Shown here piece after piece: positions 19,423-44,405 of a DNA stretch of 64,000 nucleotides. The first letter of the stretch is position 1. Every line of letters starts with the position of its first letter. The stretch comes from an uncultured Bacillota bacterium (GTDB lineage Bacteria > Bacillota > Dehalobacteriia > UBA7702). Location of the stretch: positions 1,564-65,563 of the forward strand of contig CAKUYE010000013.1 in NCBI GenBank assembly GCA_934702375.1, in the 5' to 3' direction. The translations under genes and the position numbers were made by a program. Below the pieces are notes generated by a model. It was given only the letters and a program-made list of their open reading frames with translations, had not been told where the DNA came from and made no database searches.

Positions 19423-19435
19423 TGGATAAAAAGTT

Positions 19436-19640
19436 TACAACCAGCTTTTCTGCCCTATTTGGGGCAGTTGGGGAAGCATGTGAAAATCATGCACGGTCAC
19501 GCCACTGTAAAAAGGGTACCCTTTGAGTCAGAAACCACCTGGTTGTAGTTGCACATATGTTGTTACGATTGATGGCAACGTGCAGAGAAAAGGATCCGTC
19601 TTAGCCTCGCCGTTTTCGTAACGCAAGGCTTTTTTTTGTT
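19436..19640 (+). promoter_or_regulatory. Cobalamin riboswitch (plus strand) controlling cbiMNQO-cbiK-cobD
   Basis: P1 acaaccag/ctggttgt. GGGGAA, GTGAAAATC, ACGGTCACGCCACTGT and B12 box GAGTCAGAAACCACCTGG. Followed by a hairpin with a T8 run (cgcaaggctttttttt) before the cbiM RBS. Confidence 0.75.
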
Positions 19641-19663
19641 ATTTATGCTGGAGGTTTTATGTT

Positions 19664-20416: not shown

Positions 20417-20730
20417 AAAAACAGACGAAAAATAAAACGACTGTGTTGATTCTTTCGGTAGTTGCCATTTTTATCGTCATGATCCCTTTTTTGACATTGA
20501 AAGATGCGGAATTTGGCGGCAGTGACGATGCTGGCAGTGTTATGGTCGAAAATATTAATGGCGAGTATGAGCCGTGGTTTACCCCGGTATTGGAATCGGC
20601 TCTCGGTCATGAGATCCCCGGGGAAATCGAGTCTTTATTCTTTTGCTTGCAAACCGGTATAGGTGTTGGGATCCTGGCATTCTTTATGGGGCGTTTTTAT
20701 GAACGCAAAGTCAGTCAAAAGAAAGAGTGA
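20413..20730 (+). CDS. cbiN: Cobalt transport protein CbiN
   Basis: 105 aa, two TM helices. ATGA start/stop overlap with cbiM. Confidence 0.85.
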
Positions 20731-20766
20731 GCGGGTCTCTCGGACAAAACAGCGAGGATAATTAAG

Positions 20767-22382: not shown

Positions 22383-23176
22383 ATAAAAAAGCATTATTAG
22401 TGGTCAGTTTTGGCACCAGCTATGAAGCTACGCGAAAAAAAACGATTGATGGTATTGAACAGGATCTTTCTTCTGCTTTCCCGGATCGCATCTTTTATCG
22501 TGCCTGGACAAGCAAAATGATTATCCGTAAGATAAAAAACAGAGATGGTATTCATGTGGATACCGTAACCGAAGCCATGGAGCGGATGATTGCGGACGGG
22601 ATTGATGATGTCCTTGTGCAGCCTACGCATATTTTAAATGGTGTGGAAAATGATCTTATGCGTGAAGATATTGCCGCTTTCCGAGACCGTTTTAAGCAGA
22701 TTCGGATTGGGGATCCCCTGCTGATGTACACGGATGATTTTATTGCCGTTGCCCGAGGTGTCGCAGATGCCCTGCCTTCCCTTAAAGAAGATGAGGCCAT
22801 TGTGTTTATGGGACACGGTACGGACCATAGTGCAAACATGACGTATCCTGCATTGGATTATGTCTTTCGGGATTTAGGACTTTCGCGTTGCTTTGTTGCA
22901 ACCGTTGAAGGATATCCGGCATTGGATAGCGTTATGCGGGATCTGAAGGCTTGCGGCTGTATTCGAAAGGTATATCTAGTTCCGTTTATGATCGTTGCCG
23001 GGGATCATGCTCTTAACGATATGGCAGGTGAAGAAGATGACTCTTGGAAAAATCAATTGGAAACTGCCGGTTATTGCGTAGAATGTATCTTGCGTGGGTT
23101 GGGAGAATATGAAGTCGTTCGGAAACTTTTAAAATATCACGCATTAAAAGCCTCCGGAGATTTTTTTGAGATTTAA
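22379..23176 (+). CDS. cbiK: Sirohydrochlorin cobaltochelatase (anaerobic)
   Basis: 265 aa. CbiK fold (LLVVSFGTSY...GHGTDH). Confidence 0.85.
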   Translation: MNKKALLVVSFGTSYEATRKKTIDGIEQDLSSAFPDRIFYRAWTSKMIIRKIKNRDGIHVDTVTEAMERMIADGIDDVLVQPTHILNGVENDLMREDIAAFRDRFKQIRIGDPLLMYTDDFIAVARGVADALPSLKEDEAIVFMGHGTDHSANMTYPALDYVFRDLGLSRCFVATVEGYPALDSVMRDLKACGCIRKVYLVPFMIVAGDHALNDMAGEEDDSWKNQLETAGYCVECILRGLGEYEVVRKLLKYHALKASGDFFEI

Positions 23177-29096: not shown

Positions 29097-29240
29097 TATT
29101 GTCATAAGTAAATATCGCTGTATCTTCTGCTTCTGCTTTTGATTGTGCAGGGATATCCTTGTGTGTGCGCTATGAAGGATGAGAAAACGATCTTTTTTTT
29201 CAGGTGCGCATTTTATTTTGTCTACAAAGGAGGACGATCA

Positions 29241-31769
29241 ATGAAGACAAAAAGATTGCAAAAACTTGCTATCGTATTTGCTGCGGTGATGTGTTTGCTC
29301 TGTTTTGGGGCCCAAGGTATTTTCGCCAATGAAGCCCCTTTTACCTGGAGTGATTTTCGCGGTAATGCGGAAAACAATGGCGTTGTGAATTACAAAACGC
29401 CCCGCACGGCCGAAGAGGCGGTGCTTTCCTGGGCATTTCGCGCCGGTACCGGCTGGGATAATGCCGCCAGCTGCCCCATCATTGTAAATGATACCGTTAT
29501 TTTTTCTGCAAACCGCACGTTGTATAAACTGGATCGTGTTTCCGGTAAGGTATTGGCAACGGGTACTTTAAAGTATAAATCCGATTATAATATCATTCCG
29601 CCGACCTATGCGGCACCGGATGAATATACCGGTGAGCATGGCATGATTTTTGTGGGGCTCAGCTCCGGAATGATTCAGGCTTATGATGCCGAGACATTGG
29701 AAACGATTTGGATCTATCGGGATATTTCTTCCGATATTGAACCGGATTTGAAGGATGCTAAGGACAGTGCTATTGGCGGTCAGGTCAATTGCCCCCTTAC
29801 CTATCGCGACGGATACCTTTATACCGGCTTTTGGAAGGGCGCCCAAAAGGATGCCTATTTTGTCGGTATTGCCGTTGCGGACGAGGCTAAAAATAAAAAC
29901 AGTGAAGGATACCAGCGGTCTGCCTGGCGGTATATGAATAAGGGTGGATTTTATTGGGCCGGTTGTTACGCTACGGATAAATATGTTGTTGTCGGTGGAG
30001 ATGATGGTGTTGGTGATGACGCAGCTCTTGTGGGTGATCCGGAAGGAAATGCGCCGCTGTTTTGCTTTGATGCAAAGACCGGGGATGTGATTTCCTCGAT
30101 TCCGGATTTTAAAGGCGACATTCGTTCAACGGTTTGTTTCGATGATGGTTATCTGTATTTTACCTCGAAAGGGAAAACCTTTTATCGTGTCGGAATTTCC
30201 GATGAAGGTATTTTGGATAAATCCAGTGTAAGAGCCCTTCTGTTGGATGGCAACAGCACTTCGACTCCTGTTGTGCATAATGGTCGGGCTTATGTTGGTG
30301 TTATGGGAACTCGCGGTCAGTTTGATTCTTATTCCGGCCACCATGTTGCCGTGATTGATCTGGATGCCTGGAAAGTTGCCTATAAATGTGAGACCAAGGG
30401 GTACCCTCAGACCAGCGGCCTTTTAACCACGGCCTATGAGGACACCGATGGCTATGTATACGTATACTTCTTTGATAATGACAAGCCCGGTATGCTCCGT
30501 GTTTTGAAGGATAAACCGGGACAGACGGAGCCGATTACCAACGGTGAAACCGTAAATACCTTGCCGGTGCTTTTCTCGCCTACCGATGAACATCAGCAAT
30601 ATGCGATTTGCAGTCCTATCTGCGACGAATATGGCACCATTTACTTTAAAAACGATTCCGGGTATGTTATGGCATTAACCTCCAATGTAGAGGATTTGAA
30701 GTTTACCGCTCCGCCTACGAAGCAGACGTATCTCGAAGGAGATGCCTTTGACCCCACCGGCGCTGTTGCAATGTTGACCTACTGCAATGGTCTGACCAGA
30801 GATGTATCACAGTATCTTTCCTGTGGCTCCGACACTTTGAATACCGATGATATCGTTGTGAATGTAACCTTCCCTTATGTGATGTATCAGGATAATCTTT
30901 TGACTCCGGATGAAATTACGGCCATTGATAACGATAAAACCCTTTCGGATTCGAATAAAGTCATCAAAAAAGATGAAAACCATGTGGGCGTAAAGGTTTC
31001 GGTGCCTTACTATGAATTGAGCGTAAAGGTTGAGCCTTCCGCTGCCGTTACCGATAAAATGATCAGTGAAGCGAAAGGCACCCTCACTCGAGAACGAGTC
31101 AAGGCCCTCCGTGCTCGTTATAATTCTCTTAATGCCGAAGAAAAAGGAAAGATGAAAAATCTGGCGATTCTGGTGGAAGCCGAACAGAAGCTGGCGAACT
31201 TCTACAGCGATGTGAAATCCGAATACTGGTATTGCAGTGCTGCTGAGTTCGTAACGTTGAACGGACTGATGAACGGTGTGGGCGGTAATAAATTTGATGG
31301 TAACGGTATAACGACCCGTGCACAGTTGGTAACGATTCTTTATCGTTATGCCGGCAGCCCCGATGTTTCCGGTTCAACTCCTTTTACCGATGTAAAATCC
31401 GGCGAATGGTATGCCGATGCTATCAGCTGGGCTTATGCCAATAAAGTTGTAAATGGTGTTGACAATACCCACTTTGGCCCCAATGACACTCTTACTCGTG
31501 AGCAGCTGATCACGATTCTTTACCGCTACTGCAAAAGCCAGGGTATGGATGTAACGGGTTCTCAATCCTTAACGGGTTTCTCTGATTTCAATCGTGTAAG
31601 CGAGTACGCAGAAGCGCCTATGAAATGGGGCGTTTATGCAAAACTGATCAGCGGTATGCCTGAGGGCGGAAATATGTATCTTCAGCCTCAAGGGAATGCA
31701 AACAGAGCGCAGATTGCTACGATCATGATGCGCTTTATCGATCCTACCGCTGAAAAAGAAGGCAAATAA
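29241..31769 (+). CDS. Cell-surface protein: signal peptide, PQQ-like beta-propeller domain, linker, three C-terminal SLH (S-layer homology) domains (paralog 1)
   Basis: MKTKRLQKLAIVFAAVMCLLCFGAQGIFA signal. WxYxT/YKLD propeller repeats. Three about 60-aa SLH repeats at the C-terminus (TRAQLVTILYRY..., TREQLITILYRY..., RAQIATIMMRF). RBS aaaggagg. Confidence 0.8.
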   Translation: MKTKRLQKLAIVFAAVMCLLCFGAQGIFANEAPFTWSDFRGNAENNGVVNYKTPRTAEEAVLSWAFRAGTGWDNAASCPIIVNDTVIFSANRTLYKLDRVSGKVLATGTLKYKSDYNIIPPTYAAPDEYTGEHGMIFVGLSSGMIQAYDAETLETIWIYRDISSDIEPDLKDAKDSAIGGQVNCPLTYRDGYLYTGFWKGAQKDAYFVGIAVADEAKNKNSEGYQRSAWRYMNKGGFYWAGCYATDKYVVVGGDDGVGDDAALVGDPEGNAPLFCFDAKTGDVISSIPDFKGDIRSTVCFDDGYLYFTSKGKTFYRVGISDEGILDKSSVRALLLDGNSTSTPVVHNGRAYVGVMGTRGQFDSYSGHHVAVIDLDAWKVAYKCETKGYPQTSGLLTTAYEDTDGYVYVYFFDNDKPGMLRVLKDKPGQTEPITNGETVNTLPVLFSPTDEHQQYAICSPICDEYGTIYFKNDSGYVMALTSNVEDLKFTAPPTKQTYLEGDAFDPTGAVAMLTYCNGLTRDVSQYLSCGSDTLNTDDIVVNVTFPYVMYQDNLLTPDEITAIDNDKTLSDSNKVIKKDENHVGVKVSVPYYELSVKVEPSAAVTDKMISEAKGTLTRERVKALRARYNSLNAEEKGKMKNLAILVEAEQKLANFYSDVKSEYWYCSAAEFVTLNGLMNGVGGNKFDGNGITTRAQLVTILYRYAGSPDVSGSTPFTDVKSGEWYADAISWAYANKVVNGVDNTHFGPNDTLTREQLITILYRYCKSQGMDVTGSQSLTGFSDFNRVSEYAEAPMKWGVYAKLISGMPEGGNMYLQPQGNANRAQIATIMMRFIDPTAEKEGK

Positions 31770-32008: not shown

Positions 32009-34471
32009 ATGAAATCGAAAAAACTACAGCGATTTACCGTGGTACTGGCAGCTGTCGTGTGCCTGCTCTGCATCAGTGCCCAAGGTGTTTTTGCTTACGA
32101 TTGGAGCAGCTTCCGCGGTAATGAAGAAAACAATGGTGTTGTGAATTACAAGACGCCCCGTACTGCCGAAGAAGCGGTTCTTTCCTGGGCATTCAGCGCC
32201 GGTGCCGGTTGGGATAATGCCCCCAGCTGCCCGATCATTGTAAACGATACTGTGGTATTTGCTGCAAACAAGATCTTATACAAATTAGACCGTGTTTCCG
32301 GTGAAGTACTTGCCACCGGTACTTTGCGGTATAAATCTGACTTTAACATTATCCCGCCGACCTATGCTGCACCGGATGAATATACCGGTGAACACGGCAT
32401 GATCTTTGTGGGGCTTACTTCCGGTATGGTGCAGGCCTTTGATGCGGAAACTCTGGAATCACTCTGGATTTACAGGGATCCTTTGAGCGGCCAGGTTAAC
32501 TGCCCTTTGACCTACCGTGATGGCAACCTTTATACCGGTTTCTGGTATTCTGAAGAAAAGGAAGCCAACTTTGCCTGCATTCCTGTGGCAAACACTTCGG
32601 AAAATAAATCCGGAGACTTTCAGAAGAGTACCTGGGTACAACCGAATAAAGGCGGTTATTACTGGGCCGGCTGCTATGCTACCGATAATTATGTTGTTGT
32701 CGGCGGTGATGACGGTGAAAAATCCGAGGATCTTGCCGGTACCGATTCCAATGGCGATGCGCCCCTTCGCAGCTTTAATTCCAAGACCGGTGCTTTGATT
32801 GACTCCGTAAAGGGCATCACCGGAGATATCCGCTCTACAGTTTGCTATGATAACGGCTATATCTACTTTACTTCCCGTGCAAAGACTTTCTACCGCGTTG
32901 CCATTGCGGAAGATGGAACCTTCGGTAAGGTTGACGCCTTAAAAATGGACGGTAATTGTACCTCTACTCCCGTTGTGTACAATGGCAGAGCTTATATCGG
33001 TGTTATGGGAACCCGCGGTCAGTTTGACTCTTATTCCGGTCACCATGTTGCCGTGATTGATCTGGATGCCTGGAAAATTGCCTATAAATGCGAAACCAAG
33101 GGATATCCCCAGACCAGCGGTCTTTTAACCACGGCCTATGAAGAAACCGATGGCTATGTATACGTATACTTCTTTGATAATGACAAACCCGGTATGCTCC
33201 GTGTTTTGAAAGATAAACCGGGACAGACCAAAGCAATCACCAACGGTGAAACCGTAAATACCCTGCCGGTGCTTTTCTCGCCTACCGGAGACCAGCAGCA
33301 ATATGCAATTTGCAGTCCTATCTGCGATGAATACGGCACCTTCTATTTTAAAAATGATTCCGGCTATATCATGGCTTTGACCCCCAATGTGACGGATTTG
33401 AAATTCTCCACGCCGCCTACGAAGCAAACTTATCTCGAAGGGGATGCTTTTGATGCTACCGGTGCAACGGCAACCCTTACTTATTGCAATGGCTTGACCA
33501 GAGATGTTTCCAGCTACCTGGCCGGTACTACCGAATCTTTGAGTACCGATGATATCGTTGTGAATGTGACCTTCCCCTATGTGATGTATCAGGATAAGCT
33601 TTTGACTTCGGATGAAATCACTGCCATTGATAACGATAAAACCCTTACGGATTCGAATAAAGTCATCAAAAAGGATGAAAACCATGTTGGCGTAAGTGTT
33701 GAGCTTCCTTATTACGAAGCTTCTGTTACCGTAAATCCTTCTGCCGCGGCTACCGATAAAATGATCGGTGAAACAGAAGGTGTTCTTACCAGAGCTCGTG
33801 TTGAAGCCATTCGAGCCAAGTATGATTCTTTGAGTGCAGAGGAAAAAGATAAAGTAAAGAATCTGGCAATTCTGGTGGAAGCCGAACAGAAGCTGAAGAA
33901 CTTCTACGGTGATGTGCAATCCAGGGATTGGTATTGCAGTGCTGCTGAGTTTGTAACGCTGAACGGATTGATGAATGGTGTGGACAATGGTAAATTTGAT
34001 GGTAACGGCATAACGACCCGCGCACAGCTGGTTACGATTCTTTATCGTTATGCCGGCAGCCCCGATGTTTCCGGCTCAACTCCTTTTACCGATGTAAAAG
34101 CCGGTCAGTGGTATACCAATGCTGTCAACTGGGCTTATGAAAAGGACGTGGTAAAAGGGGTCTCTACAACACAGTTTGGTACCAACGAACCGGTTACCCG
34201 TGAGCAGTTGGTCACGATTCTTTACCGTTACTGCAAAAGCCAGGGTATGGATGTATCGGGTTCTCAATCCTTAACTGGTTTCTCTGATTTCAATCGCGTA
34301 AACACGTACGCAGAAGTGCCTATGAAATGGGGCGTTTATGCAAAGCTGATCAGTGGTATGCCTGAGGGCGGAAATATGTATCTTCAGCCCCAAGGGAGCG
34401 CGACCAGAGCGCAGATTGCCACGATCATGATGCGCTTTATTGATCCTACCGCTGAAAAAGAAGGCAAATAA
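32009..34471 (+). CDS. Cell-surface PQQ-like beta-propeller protein with three SLH domains (paralog 2)
   Basis: About 80% identical to the upstream paralog across the propeller and SLH regions. Has its own signal peptide. RBS aaaggagg. Confidence 0.8.
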   Translation: MKSKKLQRFTVVLAAVVCLLCISAQGVFAYDWSSFRGNEENNGVVNYKTPRTAEEAVLSWAFSAGAGWDNAPSCPIIVNDTVVFAANKILYKLDRVSGEVLATGTLRYKSDFNIIPPTYAAPDEYTGEHGMIFVGLTSGMVQAFDAETLESLWIYRDPLSGQVNCPLTYRDGNLYTGFWYSEEKEANFACIPVANTSENKSGDFQKSTWVQPNKGGYYWAGCYATDNYVVVGGDDGEKSEDLAGTDSNGDAPLRSFNSKTGALIDSVKGITGDIRSTVCYDNGYIYFTSRAKTFYRVAIAEDGTFGKVDALKMDGNCTSTPVVYNGRAYIGVMGTRGQFDSYSGHHVAVIDLDAWKIAYKCETKGYPQTSGLLTTAYEETDGYVYVYFFDNDKPGMLRVLKDKPGQTKAITNGETVNTLPVLFSPTGDQQQYAICSPICDEYGTFYFKNDSGYIMALTPNVTDLKFSTPPTKQTYLEGDAFDATGATATLTYCNGLTRDVSSYLAGTTESLSTDDIVVNVTFPYVMYQDKLLTSDEITAIDNDKTLTDSNKVIKKDENHVGVSVELPYYEASVTVNPSAAATDKMIGETEGVLTRARVEAIRAKYDSLSAEEKDKVKNLAILVEAEQKLKNFYGDVQSRDWYCSAAEFVTLNGLMNGVDNGKFDGNGITTRAQLVTILYRYAGSPDVSGSTPFTDVKAGQWYTNAVNWAYEKDVVKGVSTTQFGTNEPVTREQLVTILYRYCKSQGMDVSGSQSLTGFSDFNRVNTYAEVPMKWGVYAKLISGMPEGGNMYLQPQGSATRAQIATIMMRFIDPTAEKEGK

Positions 34472-34571: not shown

Positions 34572-34600
34572 TTGCCTTTTTTTTGAAATGATGCTATATT
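34572..34600 (+). promoter_or_regulatory. Sigma-A promoter (-35 TTGCCT, 17 nt, -10 TATATT) for the riboswitch-led operon
   Basis: ttgcct tttttttgaaatgatgc tatatt. Confidence 0.5.
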
Positions 34601-34623
34601 ATAAGAATAATCAAAGGAATTTT

Positions 34624-34845
34624 CCAAAGCTATGGAATAGAGGTGTGAATCCTCTGCGGTATGGCCACCGTGATGACGAGCTGCTTTTCTTCAATGCCAT
34701 TGATTTGAGTTGAGAAGGCGAAAAGCAGTATGGACTCTAAGTCGGGATACTTGCTTTGGCGGATTTGTGAGAGATGCAGCTGCCATATACAGTTGACATT
34801 CATGTTTCCGCAGAAGCAAAAAACGCTTTTGCGGCTTTTTGTTTC
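34624..34845 (+). promoter_or_regulatory. Cobalamin riboswitch (aptamer ~34624-34748 plus terminator ~34803-34845) heading the DUF4430/MoxR/lipoprotein operon
   Basis: P1 ccaaagc/gctttgg. AGGAA, GGTGtGAATCC, CGGTatgGCCACcGTgA, GCCAtTG, GAAGGCG and B12 box AAGTCGGGATACTTGC in canonical order. Then hairpin ccgcagaagcaaaaaacgcttttgcgg followed by ctttttgttt. Confidence 0.7.
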
Positions 34846-35071
34846 GATGTGAAACCATGAAATATGTGTGTGGCGGGAAGCGAAAGCTTTTGTGGTTCTT
34901 TGCAATGGCGCACACATTGTGTTCTGCCCGGCTTCGCACGGTGGGCAGACATCCGAAACCATAAAGGTGACTATTGGGTGGGTTCGTGCTTTTCGTACAA
35001 GGCCTGCTGCTTTTTGCTGTAAAGAATTAAATTTACCCCATGCTGTAGGATCGGGAGCTGAGGTGTTAAAA

Positions 35072-37207
35072 ATGAAAAAACCGGATTTTAAGAATATGTG
35101 GAAGGCAACGAAAAAGAAGTCTCTTCACCTGCGGAAGTCTTCGCTGTGGATGGGGGCGTTTCTCGTTGTCTTTCTTATTGTTTTAAGCTGCGGTGTACTC
35201 TTTGCCGGAGAATCGGAGCCGGAAAACCCCATTGGCGATAAAAGTGACAGTTTTGATACTGCATCGGTTATTATGAATTGCGAAAGCGATGAGGATGATA
35301 ATGTGTATGTTCCGGTGCCGGTGGCAACAGAGCCGGATCAATCCACGGAATCGGAACAATCCAGTTCCGGTGTAAACGGTCAGGAAGAACAGCAGCAGGA
35401 TCCCAAAGAAGAGGACTCTCAGCAGGAAGAACAGCAAACTCCGCCGGAGCAGGCTCCTCAGGAAGAAAAGATCACCAAGCCTGCGGCCTCGGCCCGCTCC
35501 GATAAAAACAACAATGCGGCTCCCAACGGAGGCGGCGGTACCAGCGGCGGCACAGACCCCAGCGGTGAAAAAGCCGATAAGGTCTATTTTACTACCGATA
35601 TTAAAGACGGTGAGGAAGTCACGGAAAAAGCCTATGCTTTTAAAGTTACCCATAAATATCCAGAATTAAAGACGACTAAATTTGTTGTTAAAGTGAACGA
35701 TATGGAAGTTCCTCAAGATAGTCTAACATCCTGTAAAGTGGAGCTTACAGAAGGTAAAAATACCATTCGGATTTCTGCAACCTACTTGGATTCTACCGGC
35801 AAGGTTGTCGCTACTCCGTATAAAGATTACACGGTTATTCTTAATACGAAGGACCTTGTAATCAATATTAATGGTCTTGAAGATGGGGCGGAGGTGGCTC
35901 AGTCTGGACTCTCATTTGAAGCTTCTGCATCGTATAAAAATACCAAGGCATCTCTTTCTGTTCAGTTAAATGGCAAAACAATCAAGTCTAAGGGAAATGG
36001 AAAATATGATGTTTGGCTCAATTCGGGAAAGAATACTTTTACCTTTGAGGCTTCCGGTGGCGGTTTAAAGAAAAAGGAAGAGCGTACTATCATCTATACT
36101 CCCTCTGGTGTGCCTACTGTAGAATTTTTATTCCCTGAGAAAATAGAGGACACCATTGAATTTGAGGTTCGTGTAACCGGTGTTCCCGCTTCAAAAGTGG
36201 AAGGTATTACTCTCACCAGTACTACCGCAAAGATTAATCTTATTGATAAAGATAAATCTACCGCTACATATCGTTACAAAGCTACTTTGAAAAATGGAGT
36301 AAATAAATTTTCCGCCCGCGTCAAATATGACGGGAATCTGCTGGTTCCCGTTATTAAAGAGGTTGAGTTAAAACGACCGTCGGCCGGTCCTGGGAATGAT
36401 CGTCCGAGCGGAGATCGTTCTCCGGTAATTACGGAAATTAATATTACCAATGGCATGGAAACAAACAGCAGTACCTTAAATATGCTTGTCCATGCGGTGG
36501 ACTATAAAAAGGCGAACTTGAATGCAAATAACATGACGGTGCTTCTCAATGGCTTGCAGGTTATGAATCCTTGGTTGAACAATGGCGCTATGACCTATGC
36601 GATGAGGTTTGCTTCCGGTGAAAACCTTGTGGAGATTTATCTGCGAGATAGCGAGGGGTATGAGGCGTATTACAAATATCAGGTTACGTACACCCCGGTT
36701 ACCGGCCCTGTTGGCAATGCTCTTGTTAGTGTGGAGGGCACTACTGTTGGTTTGGGATATATTATTCCGCCGACCTCGGTTCCCATTTACGATGATGAGC
36801 CTGCTTCCTATGTTGTCGATCGTCTGCTGAAGGAAAACGGTATTACCTATGATTATGGCGGGAGCTTTGACAATGGGTTCTATCTGCAGCGTATCTATAA
36901 GCAAGGCTTGATGGCAAACTTCTCTATTCCGGAAAGGCTTCGCCAATATATTGATGATTACGGTGTTTTCCTGGAAGAAAATAAATATGAACTGGATAGC
37001 TTGGGAGAAAAGGACTTTATCCCCTCGGGTTCCGGCTGGATGGTTGCTGTGGATGGACATTACACCGGCTACGGCTTCTCGGATATGCGGTTGACAGATG
37101 GTTCTGTTGTCAAGGTACGCTTTACTCTGTATATGGGTAAAGATATCGGTGATGACAGTGCAGCCTCGGAAGGCCAAACCTTCCCTGAAATTTTTGTGGA
37201 ACCCTGA
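35072..37207 (+). CDS. Large membrane-anchored surface protein: N-terminal TM anchor, acidic E/Q/D-rich linker, four ~90-aa Ig-like beta-sandwich repeats, C-terminal DUF4430 (transcobalamin beta-domain-like) domain
   Basis: MKKPDFKNMWKATKKK + hydrophobic helix. Low-complexity region about aa 60-170. Repeats with ...NG...G.N.. periodicity. C-terminus ...GSGWMVAVDGHYTGYGFSDMRLTDGSVVKVRFTLYMGKDIG matches the DUF4430 core. Start moved to ATG 35072 (RBS ggagctgagg). Confidence 0.7.
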   Translation: MKKPDFKNMWKATKKKSLHLRKSSLWMGAFLVVFLIVLSCGVLFAGESEPENPIGDKSDSFDTASVIMNCESDEDDNVYVPVPVATEPDQSTESEQSSSGVNGQEEQQQDPKEEDSQQEEQQTPPEQAPQEEKITKPAASARSDKNNNAAPNGGGGTSGGTDPSGEKADKVYFTTDIKDGEEVTEKAYAFKVTHKYPELKTTKFVVKVNDMEVPQDSLTSCKVELTEGKNTIRISATYLDSTGKVVATPYKDYTVILNTKDLVININGLEDGAEVAQSGLSFEASASYKNTKASLSVQLNGKTIKSKGNGKYDVWLNSGKNTFTFEASGGGLKKKEERTIIYTPSGVPTVEFLFPEKIEDTIEFEVRVTGVPASKVEGITLTSTTAKINLIDKDKSTATYRYKATLKNGVNKFSARVKYDGNLLVPVIKEVELKRPSAGPGNDRPSGDRSPVITEINITNGMETNSSTLNMLVHAVDYKKANLNANNMTVLLNGLQVMNPWLNNGAMTYAMRFASGENLVEIYLRDSEGYEAYYKYQVTYTPVTGPVGNALVSVEGTTVGLGYIIPPTSVPIYDDEPASYVVDRLLKENGITYDYGGSFDNGFYLQRIYKQGLMANFSIPERLRQYIDDYGVFLEENKYELDSLGEKDFIPSGSGWMVAVDGHYTGYGFSDMRLTDGSVVKVRFTLYMGKDIGDDSAASEGQTFPEIFVEP

Positions 37208-37233
37208 TAGGCTGCGAGAAAGGAACGAATGAG

Positions 37234-38187
37234 ATGAATCAGCAGGTAAATGATATATTAAATGAAATAAAAAAGGTTATTGTCGGGAAGGACGAAGTCA
37301 TTTCCAAGGTTTTTATGGCCATGCTCTCCGGCGGTCACATCCTTTTGGATGACGTCCCCGGGGTAGGGAAAACCACCTTGGCATTGTCTTTCAGCAAGGC
37401 TTTGGGGCTGGATTACAAGCGTGTTCAGTTGACTTCCGACAGCATGCCTTCGGATATCGTTGGTTTTTCCGTTTATGATAAGGAAACCGGCCGAATCGAA
37501 TATAAACCCGGCGCGGTTATGACCAACCTTTTCCTTGCCGACGAAATTAACCGTACCTCCAGCCGCACGCAGTCTGCATTGTTGGAGGTTATGGAAGAAG
37601 GCCATGTGACTGTGGACGGTGTGACCAGAGAGGTTCCCCAGCCCTTTGTTGTTATCGCAACCCAGAACCCGGTGGGGTCTGCCGGGACGCAGATGCTGCC
37701 CGATTCCCAGTTAGACCGTTTTATGATCCGTACTCAGATGGGATATCCGGATTTCCAAAGTCAGGTCAATATTTTGAAAGACCGCCATACCTCAAATCCT
37801 CTTAACAATGTGCAGCGGCTTACCGATGGCGAAGGGCTTCTTGCCTTGCGCCGTCAGGTTACCGATATTTACATCGCCGATGCGATCTATGAATATGTGA
37901 CCTCTCTTGCAGAGGCTACTCGTACCCATGAGCTGGTATTGCAGGGGCTTAGTCCCCGTGGGGCTCTGGCGCTTTGCCGCATGAGCAAGGCTTATGCTTT
38001 TGTGAATGGTCGGGACTATGTGATACCCGAGGATATCGCTGCGGTGTTCCCGGATGTTGTCGGTCACCGTTTGATGCTTCAGCCCAAAGCGCGCCTTACC
38101 GGTACTACTGCTGCAGACGTTACCGCAGACCTGATTCAGTCGGTGCCGATGCCGGTTACCGGAAAGGATGCAGTCCATGAAGGCTAA
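37234..38187 (+). CDS. MoxR-family AAA+ ATPase
   Basis: 317 aa. Walker A DDVPGVGKTT. Walker B/sensor (LFLADEINR). Single AAA+ module of MoxR size. Confidence 0.85.
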   Translation: MNQQVNDILNEIKKVIVGKDEVISKVFMAMLSGGHILLDDVPGVGKTTLALSFSKALGLDYKRVQLTSDSMPSDIVGFSVYDKETGRIEYKPGAVMTNLFLADEINRTSSRTQSALLEVMEEGHVTVDGVTREVPQPFVVIATQNPVGSAGTQMLPDSQLDRFMIRTQMGYPDFQSQVNILKDRHTSNPLNNVQRLTDGEGLLALRRQVTDIYIADAIYEYVTSLAEATRTHELVLQGLSPRGALALCRMSKAYAFVNGRDYVIPEDIAAVFPDVVGHRLMLQPKARLTGTTAADVTADLIQSVPMPVTGKDAVHEG

Positions 38188-39343
38188 TATCATTTGTACG
38201 GCAGTGGGGGCCGTCCTTCTGCTGGTATTGGCTGTTTTTTCTCAAAGCCTTATGCCGCTGCTGCTGATGGTGGCATTTCTCCTCCTTGTGGCAGGCTCCC
38301 TTGGTGTTCAGCGCCTTGGTGCGGCATCTCTTTTTGCCTCTTTTGAAATGGAGGAATTGGCGGAGAAGAATCAGTCCTTGAAAGGGCAGCTCATTATCTA
38401 TAACCGTGGCCGGATCCCATTTCCTGTAGTACGGGCTATCGTGGAAACGAACAATCTTTTGACGGGAGAAAAGACGGTCACACCGGTGCCGGTGGGGATT
38501 GGTCCTCGGGGCGCTGCGACATCGACTCTGACTTTTTCTTCAGCCTACTGCGGCCGACTTAAAGTGTCGGTATCGAAATTGAAAATTTATGATTTTTTCG
38601 GTTTGGTTTCTTTGCCGGTAAAGGTGGAGGGGAAAAAGAAAGCGTTGATCCTGCCGGAATTATACTGCCCCGATGTTGTTGTGGCCAAAAGCGGCGTTAC
38701 CGAGCCGGAGTGCGATTCCTTTTCGCCGTATAAAGCCGGGAATGATCCTTCGGAAACTTTTGCAATTCGCGATTACGAGCCGGGAGATTCCCTGCGCAGT
38801 ATTCACTGGAAGCTCACCGGAAAATTCGATCGTCTTGTGGTGCGTGAATCCAGTTTGCCGATGAATGAATCGGTATTGATTCTTTTTGAGCGAATGAAAA
38901 AAGATGACGAAGCTTTTGCTGCTCCGGAGGTTCGCAATGCTATGGGGCAGATCCTGCTCTCTCTCTCGAACCAGCTTGCCGAGATGAATCTTGCCCATAC
39001 CATTGGCTGGCTTCGGGCAGAAAATGGCACGTTTATCGGTCATCGGGTAGATTCTGAGGAATCCTTTCAATTGGTTATGGCGGAGGTTTTATCCGTTTCT
39101 GAAATTTCAGGAGAAGATGATACCGTTGAAGGCTTCTTGAAAACCAATGATCACGACAGCTATTCCAATATTGTATATGTAACTGCCCATTCCAGCGAAC
39201 ACCTTTCTTTGTTGCCGCTGATGTCGCGAAAAACGATGATCCTTTGTGGGAAGGAAGAAACAGACATTGACCTTGTTGATGGTACTGTGTACACAGTAAC
39301 GCCGGATAATTATGAAACGGTGCTGTATGAAATTTTGATTTAA
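38168..39343 (+). CDS. DUF58-domain protein (vWA-like partner of MoxR ATPases)
   Basis: N-terminal TM helices. Signature RDYEPGDSLRSIHWKLTGKFDRLVVRE. Overlaps the moxR stop. Confidence 0.75.
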   Translation: MQSMKANIICTAVGAVLLLVLAVFSQSLMPLLLMVAFLLLVAGSLGVQRLGAASLFASFEMEELAEKNQSLKGQLIIYNRGRIPFPVVRAIVETNNLLTGEKTVTPVPVGIGPRGAATSTLTFSSAYCGRLKVSVSKLKIYDFFGLVSLPVKVEGKKKALILPELYCPDVVVAKSGVTEPECDSFSPYKAGNDPSETFAIRDYEPGDSLRSIHWKLTGKFDRLVVRESSLPMNESVLILFERMKKDDEAFAAPEVRNAMGQILLSLSNQLAEMNLAHTIGWLRAENGTFIGHRVDSEESFQLVMAEVLSVSEISGEDDTVEGFLKTNDHDSYSNIVYVTAHSSEHLSLLPLMSRKTMILCGKEETDIDLVDGTVYTVTPDNYETVLYEILI

Positions 39344-41733
39344 TGAAGAAAAGAATGAAGTCTGAAAACTCAGCCGGCCTTACCGTAAGCTGTGAGGCTG
39401 CAATACAACAGAATAATTCGTTCTTGCGGTTGGATTTGATCGCTCTCTTTTGTCTCGGTGTTTTGCTTCTGATCTCTTTTGGCGGGTTACTGCTTTCGCT
39501 TTTTGAGATTTCGGCTTCCGGCATCGTGCTGATTCTGTGGGGAGCGGTATGCGTGGGAGGCTGCATTTCTTTTTATGCCTTCCCCGGGATACGCCGTTGG
39601 CTTTTGATCGGTGCTGTTGCTCTGATTGGAGCTTTGATTGTTTTTACCTGGGGTATGTTTAGCGATGGCTTTGGTCTTGTGGTCAATGCCGTAAAAGACT
39701 TCTTTGGGATTCGCCTCGGTCGAATTTTTCTTCCCACGGTGGTTTCCGGTCTTTATGGGAAAAAGATTGCGGCTACGGTCTTTTTATTGCCGCTGACCCT
39801 TGTTCTTGCCATTGTCAGCAGCTATCTTGTTTGTTGCCGCAGCAATATTTTATTGTGGCTTATTCTTCTTCTTACTGCTGCCGGATTGGTCTTTGGCTTG
39901 TCCTCTCCATCCTGGTATTGGTACGCCCTTGCATTTGCCGCCTTGCTTTTGGTGGTGATTTCTCGATTAAACGTGGTAGTGCCCGGCAGCGGCAAAGGTC
40001 TGCCGATGTTGCTGCTCATTTTACCTCTCCTTGCGGTGGTCGGCATCGTATCGGCATTACCCGCTTTGGGATTCTTTGGCGGTAGCTATGAACGCCCTGA
40101 GGTTTTTACGGCGCTTGAAGAATCCTGTGCAGGTCTTTGGGATCACCTGCGTTGGCCTGATGATACGACCAGCAATTTGCCGGAAGGACAGCGTGAGAAT
40201 ATGGAAACGCCGAATCTCACTGAGGAACCGGCCTTTGAAATCTCAATGTCATCTCCGGAATCGTTGTATCTTCGCGGCTTTGTCGGCAGCGTTTATACGA
40301 AGGACGGTTGGGAATCTCCGGATCCGCGAACTGTCTACGAGTATGCCGATACCTTTTATTGGCTTCATCAGGACGGATTTTACGGTACTTCTCAGCTCTC
40401 TGCTGCTGCAGCTGCTGCGGGTATGGACAATGGGGAAAATACCGTGTCCTTTCATTATTTGGGAGCCAAAGATAAGTATGTTTACACGCCCTATGAGTAT
40501 GAGAGTTCCGATGTAGGGAAGGCTTCCCTGCGGATTGGAGATATTGCGCCGTCGCCGAAGGACTATGGCCGGGCAGACACGATTACCTACACCATGAGCA
40601 ACAATTTGGTGCGGTCTGCGGCGGATATTGCCGATGCTCTTGCCAAGGTTGCGGAAAGCGGAGATCTTTCCGCAACCTCGTATCTTCAAGACGAAGCGGC
40701 TTATCGGGAATATGTGTATGCGACAAATTTAGATCTTTCCGATGAAATGAAGCTCCTGATGACCAGTGTATTGGGAGAAGTGAATACAAAGTCCGGTCAT
40801 CCGGATTATGATACGGTTATGCAATCGATTCTGGATGCTTTGCTAACGGAATATGTATACGATGATAGCTTCGAGCCTTCGAAGGATGCGGATATCGTTT
40901 CCGACTTTATGGAAAGCAGCGCCACAGGATACTCTGTGCAGTATGCTTCTACTGCAGCCTTGATGTTCCGTTATTATGGTATCCCTGCCCGCTATGTGGA
41001 AGGCTATATCGTTACTCCTTTTGATACTTTGGCGGTTGGTGCCGATGAGCCTATTACGATTACCGGGAAAAATGCTCATGCCTGGGTGGAATATTATCGT
41101 GACGGTGTCGGTTGGATTCCATTTGAAGTGACACCGCCGTATCTGTATATCATGCCGCAGCCGGATCATATCAAATCTTATGCCTCTGATATCTATGACC
41201 CGGAAACCAATCAACAGGGCATGACCAATATGGATGAAGATAATTATGAAGAGGAGCAGGAGCCGGACACTCCCAAGGATGATAAAAAGGCAATTCCTTC
41301 CTGGGCGATTGCGTTGATCGTCATCGGCAGCATCTTGCTTTTGATACTCCTGGCATTTCTCATTTTGGCAATACGGCGTATTCGCGTGATTGCCTCCCGT
41401 AAAAAAACAGTTTCGGAAATGGAGGATGGCGATGCCATTGATCGTTTGTTCCGGGATTCTTTGGAACTGTTGTATCGCGGTGGTTTGACACCGAGGAATG
41501 GCTCTCTGGATAACTATCGTGAGCCGTTGATGGCTTTTGGCGATAAAGAACTGGTAACTTTATACACCATGATGGTTGCGCTTCACCGAGAATCCCGCTT
41601 TAGTGATCATGGAATCTCACCGGAACGGCGAAAAGTCTTTGTCATGTTCCACCGTGAGGCAAAGAGATTTGTGAAGGCCCATGCCTCTTTCTGGAAGCGG
41701 TTTTGGGATCAGTATATCCGTAATATTTATTAA
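39343..41733 (+). CDS. Transglutaminase-like superfamily polytopic membrane protein (TgpA-like architecture) with non-canonical catalytic residues
   Basis: N-terminal approximately 7 TM. Core GYSVQYASTAALMFRYYGIPARYVEGY ... NAHAWVEYYRDGVGWIPFEVTP. A late TM helix plus cytoplasmic tail follow. Ser occupies the usual Cys position and Glu the usual Asp position. Confidence 0.65.
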   Translation: MKKRMKSENSAGLTVSCEAAIQQNNSFLRLDLIALFCLGVLLLISFGGLLLSLFEISASGIVLILWGAVCVGGCISFYAFPGIRRWLLIGAVALIGALIVFTWGMFSDGFGLVVNAVKDFFGIRLGRIFLPTVVSGLYGKKIAATVFLLPLTLVLAIVSSYLVCCRSNILLWLILLLTAAGLVFGLSSPSWYWYALAFAALLLVVISRLNVVVPGSGKGLPMLLLILPLLAVVGIVSALPALGFFGGSYERPEVFTALEESCAGLWDHLRWPDDTTSNLPEGQRENMETPNLTEEPAFEISMSSPESLYLRGFVGSVYTKDGWESPDPRTVYEYADTFYWLHQDGFYGTSQLSAAAAAAGMDNGENTVSFHYLGAKDKYVYTPYEYESSDVGKASLRIGDIAPSPKDYGRADTITYTMSNNLVRSAADIADALAKVAESGDLSATSYLQDEAAYREYVYATNLDLSDEMKLLMTSVLGEVNTKSGHPDYDTVMQSILDALLTEYVYDDSFEPSKDADIVSDFMESSATGYSVQYASTAALMFRYYGIPARYVEGYIVTPFDTLAVGADEPITITGKNAHAWVEYYRDGVGWIPFEVTPPYLYIMPQPDHIKSYASDIYDPETNQQGMTNMDEDNYEEEQEPDTPKDDKKAIPSWAIALIVIGSILLLILLAFLILAIRRIRVIASRKKTVSEMEDGDAIDRLFRDSLELLYRGGLTPRNGSLDNYREPLMAFGDKELVTLYTMMVALHRESRFSDHGISPERRKVFVMFHREAKRFVKAHASFWKRFWDQYIRNIY

Positions 41734-41772
41734 ATTGATTGATTTTAGCTAAGGTGTTTTAAGGAGGAAATC

Positions 41773-42774
41773 ATGAAAAGAAAATTATTTCTGCTGTCTA
41801 TCGCTTGCCTTTGCCTTGTTTTTGCACTTTGCGGCTGCGGCAGCAAAAGCGACAGTTCCGGGGATGGTGGGGCAGATACCACAACCTCTGCCGAGTTAAC
41901 GCCGGAATCCGCTCAAGCCGATGTTGCTGCGTACTTTAGCAGCCATAGTTCGGAATTGCTCACTGCCGGAGATGGTAGTGCAGATTGGGTTGTTATTGCC
42001 TATGCTCGCAGCGATTGCAAAGCTCCGGATAAGTTCTTTGACAAATTCTATGCTTTACTGGAACAGCAAGTTACGGAAGCCCAAGGGGTTCTCGATGATA
42101 CGAAATATACCGTATACTCCCGCTCGGTTCTTGCTTTGACAGCGATGGGGAAGGATCCTCATAATGTTGGCGGATATGATCTTTTAGAGCCGTTAGCCGA
42201 TGTTGATACCGTAGCTTCTCAGGGGTTGAACGGCTCGATTTGGGCCTTGCTGGCATTGAATTCCGGCCATTACACTCTGGAAAGCCGTCCCGATGCTGCA
42301 GAAAGTTATCTCAGCCTGATCCTTAACGGTCAGTTGGATAACGGTGGCTTTGCTTTGGGGGAAGGTGCCGATGCGGATATCGATATTACCGCCATGGCGT
42401 TACAGGCCCTTGCTCCCTATCAGGATCGCGAGGAGGTATCGGCTGCCATTGACCGCGGTTTGACGTACCTTAGTGAATCTCAGAGCGATGACGGAAGCTA
42501 CCTCTATTATGGTTCTGCAAATGCAGAAAGTATTTGTCAGGTCATTACGGCTGTTTCCTCTCTTGGCATTGGCATTGATGATGATCGTTTTGTGAAAAAC
42601 GGCAATACCCTGTTTGATGCTCTGATGGAATATCGTTTGGATGATGGTTCATATTTCCATACTGCGGAAATGAAAGAAACCAATCTTATGGCTTCGGAAC
42701 AGGCTTTTTATGCTCTGACTGCATTGATTCGAAATGAAAAAGGTGAATCTGCTCTTTATGCAATGGCAGACTGA
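41773..42774 (+). CDS. Lipoprotein with prenyltransferase/terpenoid-cyclase-like alpha/alpha-toroid repeats (transcobalamin alpha-domain-like)
   Basis: Lipobox LVFALCGC. Three Q/R-x-D-(N/D)-G-(G/S)-(F/Y) repeats (NGQLDNGGFALGEG, SQSDDGSYLYYG, YRLDDGSYFHTAE) plus GSIWALLAL and ITAMALQAL helices. Confidence 0.65.
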   Translation: MKRKLFLLSIACLCLVFALCGCGSKSDSSGDGGADTTTSAELTPESAQADVAAYFSSHSSELLTAGDGSADWVVIAYARSDCKAPDKFFDKFYALLEQQVTEAQGVLDDTKYTVYSRSVLALTAMGKDPHNVGGYDLLEPLADVDTVASQGLNGSIWALLALNSGHYTLESRPDAAESYLSLILNGQLDNGGFALGEGADADIDITAMALQALAPYQDREEVSAAIDRGLTYLSESQSDDGSYLYYGSANAESICQVITAVSSLGIGIDDDRFVKNGNTLFDALMEYRLDDGSYFHTAEMKETNLMASEQAFYALTALIRNEKGESALYAMAD

Positions 42775-42798
42775 TCACAGTAGAGGGGGGAATTTTCA

Positions 42799-43398
42799 AT
42801 GAGATTTAAAAAGGCTTTTGCTCTATTCCTTTTGATTGCGGTTTTGCCGATATTTGCGGCTTGCGGAACAATCACGACAAAAGATGCCGGAGAGTATAGC
42901 GATGATGTCGATGCCTATCAGACAGAACCGGTTCCCGAAGGGAAACCGAGTCCGGTAAATACGGAAGATCAGGAAATCGATAAAACGAAAGCCGGTACTT
43001 GTACTTTATCGGTAGAATGCAAGACGATTCTTGACAATATGACGAAACTGAAAAAGGAAAAGAAGGATATTGTTCCGGAAGACGGCATTATCTTCCCCAA
43101 GCAGGAAGTAACTTTTTATGAAGGGGAATCTGTTTTCGATGTTTTGCAACGCGAAATGCAGGATAATAAAATTCATTTGGAATTTGAATGGACGCCTCTT
43201 TACGGCTCCAGCTATGTGGAAGGTATCGCGAACCTTTATGAAATGGATTGCGGTGAGCTTTCCGGGTGGACATTTAGTGTAAATGGGTGGTTCCCCAATT
43301 ATGGTGCCAGTCGTTATATCGTTTCCGAAGGAGATGATATTCAGTGGCTGTATACCTGTGACCTTGGCAAGGATGTTGGCTCTACAATGGAGGAATAA
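42799..43398 (+). CDS. DUF4430-family lipoprotein (transcobalamin/intrinsic-factor beta-domain-like)
   Basis: Lipobox PIFAACG. ...GELSGWTFSVNGWFPNYGASRYIVSEGDDIQWLYTCDLGKDVG matches the DUF4430 core. Confidence 0.7.
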   Translation: MRFKKAFALFLLIAVLPIFAACGTITTKDAGEYSDDVDAYQTEPVPEGKPSPVNTEDQEIDKTKAGTCTLSVECKTILDNMTKLKKEKKDIVPEDGIIFPKQEVTFYEGESVFDVLQREMQDNKIHLEFEWTPLYGSSYVEGIANLYEMDCGELSGWTFSVNGWFPNYGASRYIVSEGDDIQWLYTCDLGKDVGSTMEE

Positions 43399-43466
43399 TT
43401 GGAGTTGCCTCTTGGGTGATTTTGTGATATGATGAATCATCGCATGGAAAGGACGGACAGCTTATT

Positions 43467-44405
43467 ATGGAACTGATACATGCTTTGTTTCACTCATCTC
43501 AACGTGGTCCCTTGACGTTGCAGGGGATTAAGGAATTGGCAAATATTCATTATTGGGCAGTTTCTATTATCCCTGTGTTGCTGGGATCTGCTCTGGCATA
43601 TACTGTTGGAAACAAATTTGACCTTCTGGTATTTGTACTTTTATTGCCGGCAGCGATTTCCATGCATTGCGTTGTAAATGCCTATAATCATTTATTTGAT
43701 TATTTGCGTGGGACCGATAGAGGGGAAGAAAAAAACAGCCCCCGTTATCCGATCCTTTATTATGGGATCAATCCTTTGTATGTGTTAATCCTTGGTGTTG
43801 TATACCTGTTTCTTGCTTTTGTGCTGTCCTTTTATGTCGTATTGCAGGCCGGCTGGCCTTTGTTGATGATTGGCGCTGTGGGGGCATTTATTGCGGTGTT
43901 TTACTCCGGAGGCCCATTCCCCCTGGCACACTATCCTTTGGGGGAATTTGCCAGCGGCACGGCCATGGGAGGGCTGATTCCTTTTGCGGTATATTATGGC
44001 ATGACCGGTTCTCTGGATTGGATCATTTTGGTATATACATTGCCAATGATCTTGACCATTGGTATCCTTTGTTTTATCAATAATATTTGCGATATTGAAA
44101 AGGATTCAATTAATCGCCGAACTTTGCCAATATTGATTGGCCGCCCTCTTTCGTCAACATTATTTCGTGTAGGGTACGGGCTAACATGGATTTGCGCGCT
44201 TCTCATTTCTGTGCTTTGTTTTACCAAAGGCTGTTGGATATTAATCTTAAGCTTGGTTCTTGCCTGGAAAAAACTTCGGGAGCTTTTCCGTATGAATTAT
44301 ACTCCGTCAACCCGAAATATAGTGATTCCACTGTATGCTTCCACGATTCCTATCTTGAATGTAGGATATACGATTGCGATTTTATTACAGGGATTGCTCC
44401 ATTAG
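43467..44405 (+). CDS. UbiA-superfamily (MenA-like) integral membrane prenyltransferase
   Basis: 312 aa, 8-9 TM. First Asp-rich motif NAYNHLFDYLRGTD (NxxxDxxxxxD). Second acidic region NICDIEKD. Ends with a TAG stop. Confidence 0.6.
   Translation: MELIHALFHSSQRGPLTLQGIKELANIHYWAVSIIPVLLGSALAYTVGNKFDLLVFVLLLPAAISMHCVVNAYNHLFDYLRGTDRGEEKNSPRYPILYYGINPLYVLILGVVYLFLAFVLSFYVVLQAGWPLLMIGAVGAFIAVFYSGGPFPLAHYPLGEFASGTAMGGLIPFAVYYGMTGSLDWIILVYTLPMILTIGILCFINNICDIEKDSINRRTLPILIGRPLSSTLFRVGYGLTWICALLISVLCFTKGCWILILSLVLAWKKLRELFRMNYTPSTRNIVIPLYASTIPILNVGYTIAILLQGLLH

Follow-up and report, generated by a model that had tools for sequence, protein, structure and literature searches.

A 64,000-nucleotide stretch of DNA from an uncultured Bacillota bacterium (assembly GCA_934702375.1, contig CAKUYE010000013.1, positions 1,564 to 65,563; hereafter the window) contains, at 35072-37207 of the forward strand, a gene for a 711-residue protein that combines an N-terminal hydrophobic segment, an acidic stalk, four immunoglobulin (Ig)-like domains and a C-terminal DUF4430 domain. 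We propose, with a probability of about 0.6, that this stalk protein is a vitamin B12-repressed, N-terminally tethered surface antenna, the tip of which would be a corrinoid-binding domain of the transcobalamin-beta type (DUF4430/SLBB). The computations made here show how the protein is built and folded, what it is homologous to, that a riboswitch precedes its gene and that the gene context is conserved, and they confirm the observation made in a previous sequence-only reading of the window; its interpretation of the protein as an antenna is supported as far as computation reaches. The open reading frame (ORF) is uninterrupted and constitutes a real gene, with a GGAG/GAGG ribosome-binding site ahead of the start at 35072. 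Longer versions of the ORF, beginning at GTG 34868, were rejected as upstream read-through, the start kept in the homologues being MKKPDFKNMW. With 711 residues, the protein is not the "giant" that it had been called.

On the basis of sequence profiles and structural modelling, residues 543-711 are assigned to the DUF4430/transcobalamin-like SLBB clade. A profile of this domain, built from five family members, drew 30 proteins, most of which are annotated with PF14478 and several of which are named DUF4430 by NCBI. In an alignment of 37 sequences, the region aligns over its full length with canonical DUF4430 proteins, including the 199-residue one encoded in the same operon, and shares with them the motifs FYL (residues 603-605 of the target), LGE-D, SGW (654-656), DG, R-T-L and G-DI-G. 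The comparison of the target-domain profile with the canonical DUF4430 profile by hhalign gives a probability of 99.5% (E = 1.2e-22, 123 columns), and BLASTP of the C-terminal domain against the DUF4430 protein of the operon gives an E-value of 5e-7. The Pfam scan that had been suggested as a check gives matches on the target itself that are below threshold both for the Ig-like repeats and for DUF4430 (PF14478; 18.2 vs 23.8 bits, covering only residues 652-685), while homology is established by profile, by fold and by the matches of homologues: seven of eight family members scanned match DUF4430, with a best E-value of 1.6e-5. A search of NCBIfam returned no model matching the protein.

In an initial model of the whole protein, the predicted local distance difference test (pLDDT) score of the C-terminal domain was below 50, and a deeper alignment resolved it, yielding a domain model with a pLDDT of 92.1 and a predicted template modelling score of 0.88. 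The model displays a beta-grasp fold with the clade-specific beta-hairpin after the helix. In a Foldseek search against the PDB, the top 17 matches are all beta domains of transcobalamin (TC), intrinsic factor or haptocorrin (best E 2.6e-4), followed immediately by the DUF4430 structure 3u7z from Ruminococcus gnavus, with its two chains in two rows. Against 5np4, the TC beta domain in isolation with cobalamin bound, the TM-score is 0.70. The sequence profile, when compared with the PDB, also places TC-beta first (E = 0.055), and aligns the target residues SFDNGFYL to the TC loop S357-L363, in which the L358 backbone bonds the cobalamin phosphate (PMC5599065). We file the domain as DUF4430 because profile retrieval, full-length alignment, hhalign and BLASTP agree with the model and the Foldseek matches, which upholds the presence of a DUF4430 domain at the distal end of the protein. 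The protein itself nevertheless falls outside the transcobalamin family, as it lacks a fused N-terminal alpha/alpha-toroid, its first 542 residues being anchor, stalk and Ig-like domains. Two other sets of matches were discarded. Azoreductase and OXA-58, obtained as partial PDB matches (E 0.008-0.03) with the five-sequence profile, are attributed to chance, as the fold search and the deeper profile gave transcobalamin, and a single-sequence phmmer search of the PDB with the whole protein returned only a cation channel and TFIID, which is low-complexity noise from the stalk.

In addition, the domain contains a family-specific insertion of about 33 residues, which had been overlooked in the sequence-only reading. 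Its only strongly conserved feature is the IPxDL motif: among 43 family representatives, 91% have P620 and 98% have L623. In the model, the order of elements is two strands, a helix, the beta-hairpin (ITYDYGG...FYLQRIYKQ), the insertion with its short helix, and the SGW strand. In transcobalamin, the hairpin and strand 3 both contact B12 (Burroughs et al., PMC1796856), and for this reason the insertion is expected, by topology, to flank the ligand face. It may be a ligand cap or a partner-docking surface.

The tip is preceded by four tandem beta-sandwich repeats of about 90 residues, as had been proposed, and on this point the model, the mutual homology and the Foldseek matches agree. In the full-length model, the repeat domains have pLDDT values mostly of 85-94, decreasing to 70-76 in two 10-residue blocks. 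The four repeats are homologous to each other, with hhalign probabilities of 82-98%, and the chain of repeats matches multi-Ig/FN3 chains in the PDB down to E 7e-10, consistent with a tandem beta-sandwich fold. Neither PF12733 nor PF09136 reaches the Pfam threshold on the repeats of the target, Glucodextran_B scoring 23.3 bits vs 27.

Between the hydrophobic segment and the first repeat lies the stalk, which is rich in E, S, P, D and Q and predicted to be disordered. A low-complexity acidic stalk of about 110 residues had been placed at ~35290-35540; its character is as described, whereas its extent is larger, those positions covering only part of the disordered ~125 residues. A Q-rich stalk serving as a conserved transglutaminase substrate was considered and dropped, since the relatives are E-rich rather than Q-rich. 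We also observed two short motifs in this region, PENP at residues 50-53 (35219-35230) and VYVP at residues 78-81 (35303-35314). Of 44 family members, 27 have P-[ED]-N-P a few residues past the hydrophobic segment, and 10 have VY[IV]P some 28 residues after the position of the first motif; these motifs may be docking or processing sites.

The distribution of charges fits the positive-inside rule, and supports an N-in/C-out topology for the protein, as predicted from its sequence. The nature of the anchor is less clear. The hydrophobic segment, the sole one in the protein, could be a signal-anchor helix or a lipoprotein signal peptide, as V-L-S-C40-G inside it fits the loose PROSITE lipobox pattern, and six more hydrophobic residues follow C40. 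This cysteine is invariant in the eight-sequence clade of the target, yet such a cysteine is missing in most of the wider family, and the anchor of the target may therefore be of either type. The proposed N-terminal membrane anchor thus stands as regards its basic segment and hydrophobic stretch, but in this subclade it could be a lipid rather than a helix. A lipoprotein anchor general to the whole family was dropped, the cysteine not being kept outside the subclade.

The stalk gene is the first one after a cobalamin riboswitch, with no gene in between, in agreement with the sequence-only reading. The aptamer scores above the gathering score, lies directly upstream on the same strand and is followed by an expression platform, so that the gene is predicted to be part of the cobalamin-riboswitch regulon. 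The hairpin that follows the aptamer is the probable OFF-switch expression platform, judging from a layout that is usual for transcription-terminating switches. An RF00174 aptamer is also found 5' of the gene or operon in eight related loci (L001, L004, L005, L006, L007, L008, L011 and L012), and the scores among these and the window reach 114 bits. No aptamer was found at L009, L010 and L013, where the upstream sequence is shorter than 800 nt or the upstream gene is cut by the end of the contig. Because the aptamer is present at nine loci, the predicted B12 control is a property of the family and not only of this locus, in line with the B12 regulation that had been claimed for the gene. An unusually long leader separates the aptamer from the start codon, with 300 nt in the window (34773-35071), compared with 128 nt in L012 and about 600-630 nt in other relatives (L004 9378-10000, L005 5774-6378, L008 9335-9958, L011 9370-10000). 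The leader was searched for a conserved small ORF and for a second Rfam family, and neither was found.

The stalk family is a large, widespread and uncharacterised group of Gram-positive surface proteins. A word-indexed search retrieved seven full-length homologues, with 38-92% identity and aligned end to end, and several metagenome assemblies contain a sequence identical to the target. A scan of a genome collection gave a single relative, as its patterns had been taken from the N-terminus. An exhaustive hidden Markov model search with the domain profile gave 2727 cluster representatives at E ≤ 0.001, of which 164 are at E ≤ 1e-30. The best 150 matches are mostly proteins of 600-740 residues with the domain at the extreme C-terminus. 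Forty family sequences were compared together with the target clade for the motif counts, and all of them share an N-terminal hydrophobic segment, a mostly acidic linker of 100-175 residues and a YFTTSIKDGETVT-like start of the repeats. There are also giant proteins of 1100-2700 residues with 3-6 copies of the domain, among them P0088, P0090, P0092, P0101, P0105, P0120 and P0154 with about 1500-2300 residues, which suggests that these are multivalent surface forms of the insertion-bearing DUF4430 module.

Downstream of the stalk gene, a MoxR-type ATPase, a DUF58 protein, a transglutaminase-like protein, a toroid lipoprotein and a canonical DUF4430 lipoprotein are encoded by genes that are tightly packed or overlapping (Table 1), and no convincing intergenic terminator was detected within the operon. 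The toroid protein matches the C-terminal domain of squalene cyclase in the PDB (E = 3e-7), and is a candidate counterpart of the transcobalamin alpha domain. The membrane-proximal pair of lipoproteins that had been postulated is thus present, as the toroid and the canonical DUF4430 proteins, both with lipobox-like N-termini. Genes of an energy-coupling factor (ECF) transporter were searched for in 35072-44405 and are absent, so this is not an ECF-type corrinoid uptake operon. The sequence-only reading had overlooked the MoxR-DUF58-transglutaminase genes and the lack of an importer.

Table 1 Features of the stalk gene, its control region and its operon
Feature	Position	Strand	Evidence and remarks
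Promoter-like site TTGAAA-17-AATAAT	34583..34611	+	just 5' of the riboswitch; 10/12 matches, consensus match only
Cobalamin riboswitch aptamer RF00174	34610..34772	+	53.5 bits vs gathering score 31.5; full-length model match
Terminator-like hairpin and T-run	34808..34844	+	10-bp stem with 6 GC pairs, then CTTTTTGTTT
Rest of long 5' leader, ribosome-binding site at its end	34845..35071	+	sequence reading
Basic, predicted cytoplasmic N-terminus, aa 1-25	35072..35146	+	net charge +8
Hydrophobic segment, aa 26-45	35147..35206	+	sole one in the protein; Kyte-Doolittle 2.7; modelled helix aa 22-41
Acidic disordered stalk, aa 46-168 (~125 aa)	35207..35575	+	pLDDT <50 (full-length AlphaFold2 model); net charge -22
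Ig-like beta-sandwich domain 1, aa 169-258	35576..35845	+	pLDDT 84-90; hhalign to domain 2 96%; weak Glucodextran_B match
Ig-like beta-sandwich domain 2, aa 259-344	35846..36103	+	model and hhalign
Ig-like beta-sandwich domain 3, aa 345-436	36104..36379	+	model; hhalign to domain 2 98%
Ig-like beta-sandwich domain 4, aa 447-542	36410..36697	+	model and hhalign; homologues match Cadherin-like PF12733, best E 8e-15
DUF4430/transcobalamin-beta-like domain, aa 543-711, and stop codon	36698..37207	+	hhalign, model, Foldseek
Family-specific ~33-aa insertion with IPxDL helix, aa 609-641	36896..36994	+	gap in every canonical DUF4430 row
MoxR-type AAA+ ATPase	37234..38187	+	AAA_3 180.7 bits and AAA_lid_2; same operon
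DUF58 membrane protein	38168..39343	+	21.9 bits, below cut-off; position kept in related loci; overlaps both neighbours
Polytopic transglutaminase-like (TgpA-like) membrane protein	39343..41733	+	Transglut_core 67.9 bits
Alpha/alpha-toroid lipoprotein	41773..42774	+	weak Prenyltrans and SQHop_cyclase matches; lipobox-like LCGC
Canonical DUF4430 lipoprotein, no insertion	42799..43398	+	PF14478 57.7 bits

The comparison of related loci reveals which parts of this operon are constant. L001-L003 (92% identity) have the same operon as the window, and so do L004, L008 and L011 (~40%), in which a protein with an S-layer homology (SLH) domain and a beta-propeller is encoded just 5' of the riboswitch. 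L005 (~40%) has the SLH/beta-propeller gene, the riboswitch and the target gene, its contig ending one gene past the latter. In the more distant L006 and L009/L010 the order is stalk protein, long toroid protein, DUF4430, ECF T, A-A' and S, MoxR, DUF58 and transglutaminase, and L013, also more distant, has the order of L006, but with no ECF S gene called between A-A' and MoxR. MoxR co-occurs with the stalk family in the eight loci that are long enough to show it. The constant core is therefore the stalk protein, the toroid, the canonical DUF4430 protein and the MoxR trio, with the ECF importer in only one form of the operon.

Several genes around the operon are also of interest. Directly 5' of the riboswitch in the window, 29139-31769 and 32009-34471 (+) encode two paralogous proteins of ~820-880 residues, each with a signal peptide, a beta-propeller (weak PQQ_2/Beta-prop_ACSF4 matches) and C-terminal SLH domains; neither lies downstream of a riboswitch. 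This neighbour is kept in L004, L005, L008 and L011, and L007 has an 1853-residue propeller protein near a B12 riboswitch on the minus strand. By analogy, the SLH/beta-propeller proteins could correspond to BtuG, a B12 binder of the propeller type, in a form anchored to the wall. The operon of L011 is closed by a 501-residue protein with DUF4430 and SLH domains (18250-19755), a wall-anchored third DUF4430 paralogue. At the other end, a MenA-like prenyltransferase of the UbiA family is encoded at 43467-44405 (+), 68 nt past the operon, and is found after the DUF4430 gene in L001 as well. This gene could be part either of the B12-controlled operon or of a downstream cell-wall polysaccharide cluster (LytR-CpsA-Psr, glycosyltransferases, LicD, Wzy).

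Taken as an antenna, the stalk protein would function as follows. At low intracellular cobalamin, the riboswitch would let transcription pass the terminator, and the six-gene operon would be expressed. The basic N-terminus would stay in the cytoplasm, while the hydrophobic segment, or a lipid on Cys40, would hold the protein in the membrane. An Ig-like domain is generally about 4 nm long, and the four rigid Ig-like domains, together with the acidic linker, a coil of ~125 residues, would for this reason span the wall and carry the tip tens of nanometres out, through the wall and S-layer. There the tip would catch a free corrinoid or corrinoid precursor, a function that we infer from its fold, its conserved motifs and its context. 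The ligand would then be handed inward to the membrane-proximal toroid and canonical DUF4430 lipoproteins, a pair that resembles a split transcobalamin, and this pair would deliver it to an importer, which in distant relatives would be the ECF transporter of the operon and in this lineage one encoded elsewhere. The MoxR, DUF58 and transglutaminase-like proteins probably assemble, anchor or remodel the surface complex. The identity of the ligand, the order of the hand-off and the role of this trio are likewise inferred. The biochemistry of transcobalamin favours such a scheme: the isolated TC beta domain alone binds cobalamin and cobinamide, the ligand drives the assembly of separately expressed TC alpha and beta domains (PMC5599065), and the beta domain gives the most favourable contacts with cobalamin (PMC11107200).

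Several observations weigh against this proposal. The Pfam DUF4430 score of the single sequence is sub-threshold, the identity to the TC beta domain is 14-16%, and the Foldseek match is modest (best E 2.6e-4, query TM 0.47). The insertion of about 33 residues adjoins the expected ligand face and could alter what is bound. The N-terminal segment may be an anchor that stays in place, a signal peptide that is cleaved off, or a lipobox. The operon in the window encodes no importer of its own, and a full anaerobic cbi pathway and cbiMNQO lie close to it. Organisms that make B12 commonly have uptake loci controlled by B12 riboswitches, and we therefore give the presence of the pathway little weight; the ligand could also be a corrinoid precursor. 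In the survey by Burroughs et al., such proteins were found mostly in organisms without the pathway, and another ligand was suggested where the pathway is present (PMC1796856). The sole experimental study of a related split-transcobalamin/ECF operon, that of Lactobacillus sakei, argued for haem, not B12 (bioRxiv 10.1101/864751). Corrinoid binding by the bacterial members is a prediction throughout.

Other explanations share part of this evidence. It is unlikely that the tip does not catch free ligand on its own and serves solely as a beta half in a split transcobalamin, docking on the toroid lipoprotein or on toroid-bearing or SLH surface proteins, with the stalk reaching a partner in the wall and the insertion being a protein-docking surface rather than a ligand cap. 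The assembly of separate TC alpha and beta domains by cobalamin would favour such a role (PMC5599065), and so would the toroid genes that always accompany the stalk family, the toroid domains carried on SLH-anchored giant proteins in some relatives, such as L006, and the one strongly conserved helix motif of the insertion, IPxDL. However, the toroid already has a possible partner in the canonical DUF4430 lipoprotein of the operon, and the TC beta domain in isolation needs no alpha domain for cobalamin binding (PMC5599065). We consider it quite unlikely that the protein binds, in place of a finished cobamide, some other tetrapyrrole or a metal (haem, a corrin precursor or cobalt). The cobalamin-class riboswitch at nine loci speaks for the cobamide, as do the closest solved folds, which are all cobalamin carriers, and cobalt already has a dedicated importer under its own riboswitch in the window; on the other side stand the link of the ECF-like operon lsa1836-1840 of L. 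sakei to haem uptake (bioRxiv 10.1101/864751), the deposition of 3u7z as a "putative metal binding protein", the host probably making its own B12, and the different metabolite raised by Burroughs et al. for organisms that have the pathway (PMC1796856).

The gene order also invites a comparison with the bifidobacterial PFNA cluster (pkb2-fn3-aaa-atp-duf58-tgm), the FN3-repeat protein of which binds cytokines (PMC8430577). As in PFNA, the gene of an Ig/FN3-repeat protein precedes MoxR, DUF58 and transglutaminase genes (PMC8430577), and Ig-like arrays are typical of adhesins. It is nonetheless highly improbable that the stalk protein is an adhesin or a host- or partner-recognition protein with only a regulatory link to B12: the operon lacks the kinase gene of PFNA, the tip belongs to the small-molecule-binding beta-grasp domains rather than to FN3, the family is accompanied by toroid, DUF4430 and ECF genes, and the riboswitch is conserved. 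A bolder extension of the antenna proposal, which we judge very unlikely, is that the stalk protein, MoxR, DUF58 and the transglutaminase form one machine, in which cytoplasmic ATP hydrolysis would act across the membrane on the antenna. The energy of ATP would then serve to assemble the antenna, to anchor it covalently or to force the release of a very tightly bound corrinoid to the importer, with docking at the PENP and VY[IV]P motifs next to the membrane. If true, energy-coupled capture of nutrients at the cell surface would have a counterpart in Gram-positive bacteria.

The rest of the window informs on the cobalamin metabolism of the host. A complete-looking anaerobic cobalamin operon occupies 2485-18846 (-), with hemA, cysG/hemD, cbiA, C, D, ET, F/H/L-type methylases, G, J and P. 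Two divergent cobalamin riboswitches, at 19082-19277 (-) and 19425-19557 (+), precede this biosynthesis operon and cbiMNQO-cbiK (19664-23176, +), respectively, so that the window has three B12 riboswitches in total. From these genes, the host is probably a B12 producer. At 61220-62701 (+) there is a trimethylamine methyltransferase gene (MttB) with an in-frame TAG at 62204-62206 and a PYLIS_3 element at 62204-62303 (77.8 bits). The TAG and the PYLIS_3 element indicate a pyrrolysine-containing, corrinoid-dependent methyltransferase, and therefore a high demand for B12.

Literature searches on DUF4430, on "transcobalamin-like" and on cobalamin together with MoxR/DUF58/transglutaminase gave no description of the stalk family or of its operon. 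The fixed architecture of anchor, stalk, four Ig-like domains and DUF4430 appears to be undescribed, and so do the insertion beside the ligand face, the conservation of the riboswitch and the obligatory MoxR-DUF58-transglutaminase partners. How thick-walled, S-layered Gram-positive bacteria capture corrinoids is largely unknown, the well-studied surface systems being those of Bacteroides, and this locus offers a concrete and testable candidate, with a stalked transcobalamin-like domain, a split-transcobalamin pair, an ECF importer in relatives and a B12 riboswitch. Moreover, the enigmatic trio of MoxR, DUF58 and transglutaminase is linked here with a defined client outside the cell.

With PFNA, the operon shares a gene for a surface protein with beta-sandwich repeats directly 5' of MoxR, DUF58 and a membrane transglutaminase-like gene (PMC8430577). 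It does not have the five core genes of that cluster, as there is no kinase and the genes upstream of the target encode SLH/beta-propeller proteins; conversely, the PFNA core as described has no DUF4430, toroid, riboswitch or ECF, and its proposed ligand is a cytokine. BtuG is a beta-propeller, with a fold unrelated to DUF4430. BtuG and its partners in Bacteroides are, however, analogous, as riboswitch-controlled surface corrinoid binders that feed a transporter by an extracellular relay (PMC6143338, PMC13616437), the difference being that they operate in an outer-membrane/TonB context, whereas the target has that of a Gram-positive-type wall with SLH proteins. The L. sakei locus Lsa1836-1840 resembles the relatives L006, L009 and L013, in which separate, secreted DUF4430-like and toroid-like proteins are also encoded with ECF S, A-A' and T genes, of which T and A-A' are called in L013. 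In contrast to the operon of the window, it has ECF genes and haem as its proposed cargo, and, as described, it lacks an Ig-stalk paralogue and the MoxR-DUF58-transglutaminase genes (bioRxiv 10.1101/864751).

Transcobalamin, intrinsic factor and haptocorrin (4zrp, 2bb5, 5np4, 2pmv and 4kki) are the best structural matches of the tip, with the YL loop and the W-containing strand aligned. They differ from the target system, in which the toroid is a separate lipoprotein, the identity is 14-16%, the protein would be membrane-tethered and not soluble, and the insertion separates the clade-specific beta-hairpin from core strand 3. The locus bears on the proposal that the B12 carriers of animals descended from such bacterial proteins. 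The closest precedent is the 2007 survey of SLBB domains by Burroughs, Balaji, Iyer & Aravind, a purely computational study that described extracellular transcobalamin-like domains with Ig-fold fusions, a second SLBB paralogue and CbiO/CbiQ neighbours, and predicted the scavenging of B12 or its precursors (PMC1796856). The stalk protein agrees with those proteins in clade, surface location, Ig fusions and second SLBB paralogue, and its relatives have CbiO/CbiQ-like ECF genes. It differs from them in having the insertion, a fixed anchor-stalk-4xIg-DUF4430 layout and a host with a complete cbi pathway, and in its MoxR and transglutaminase partners, neither of which is mentioned in that study (PMC1796856). 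As Ig-fused, transcobalamin-like surface scavengers were already predicted in 2007, we regard the stalk protein as a variant of that predicted kind, and not as a new kind.

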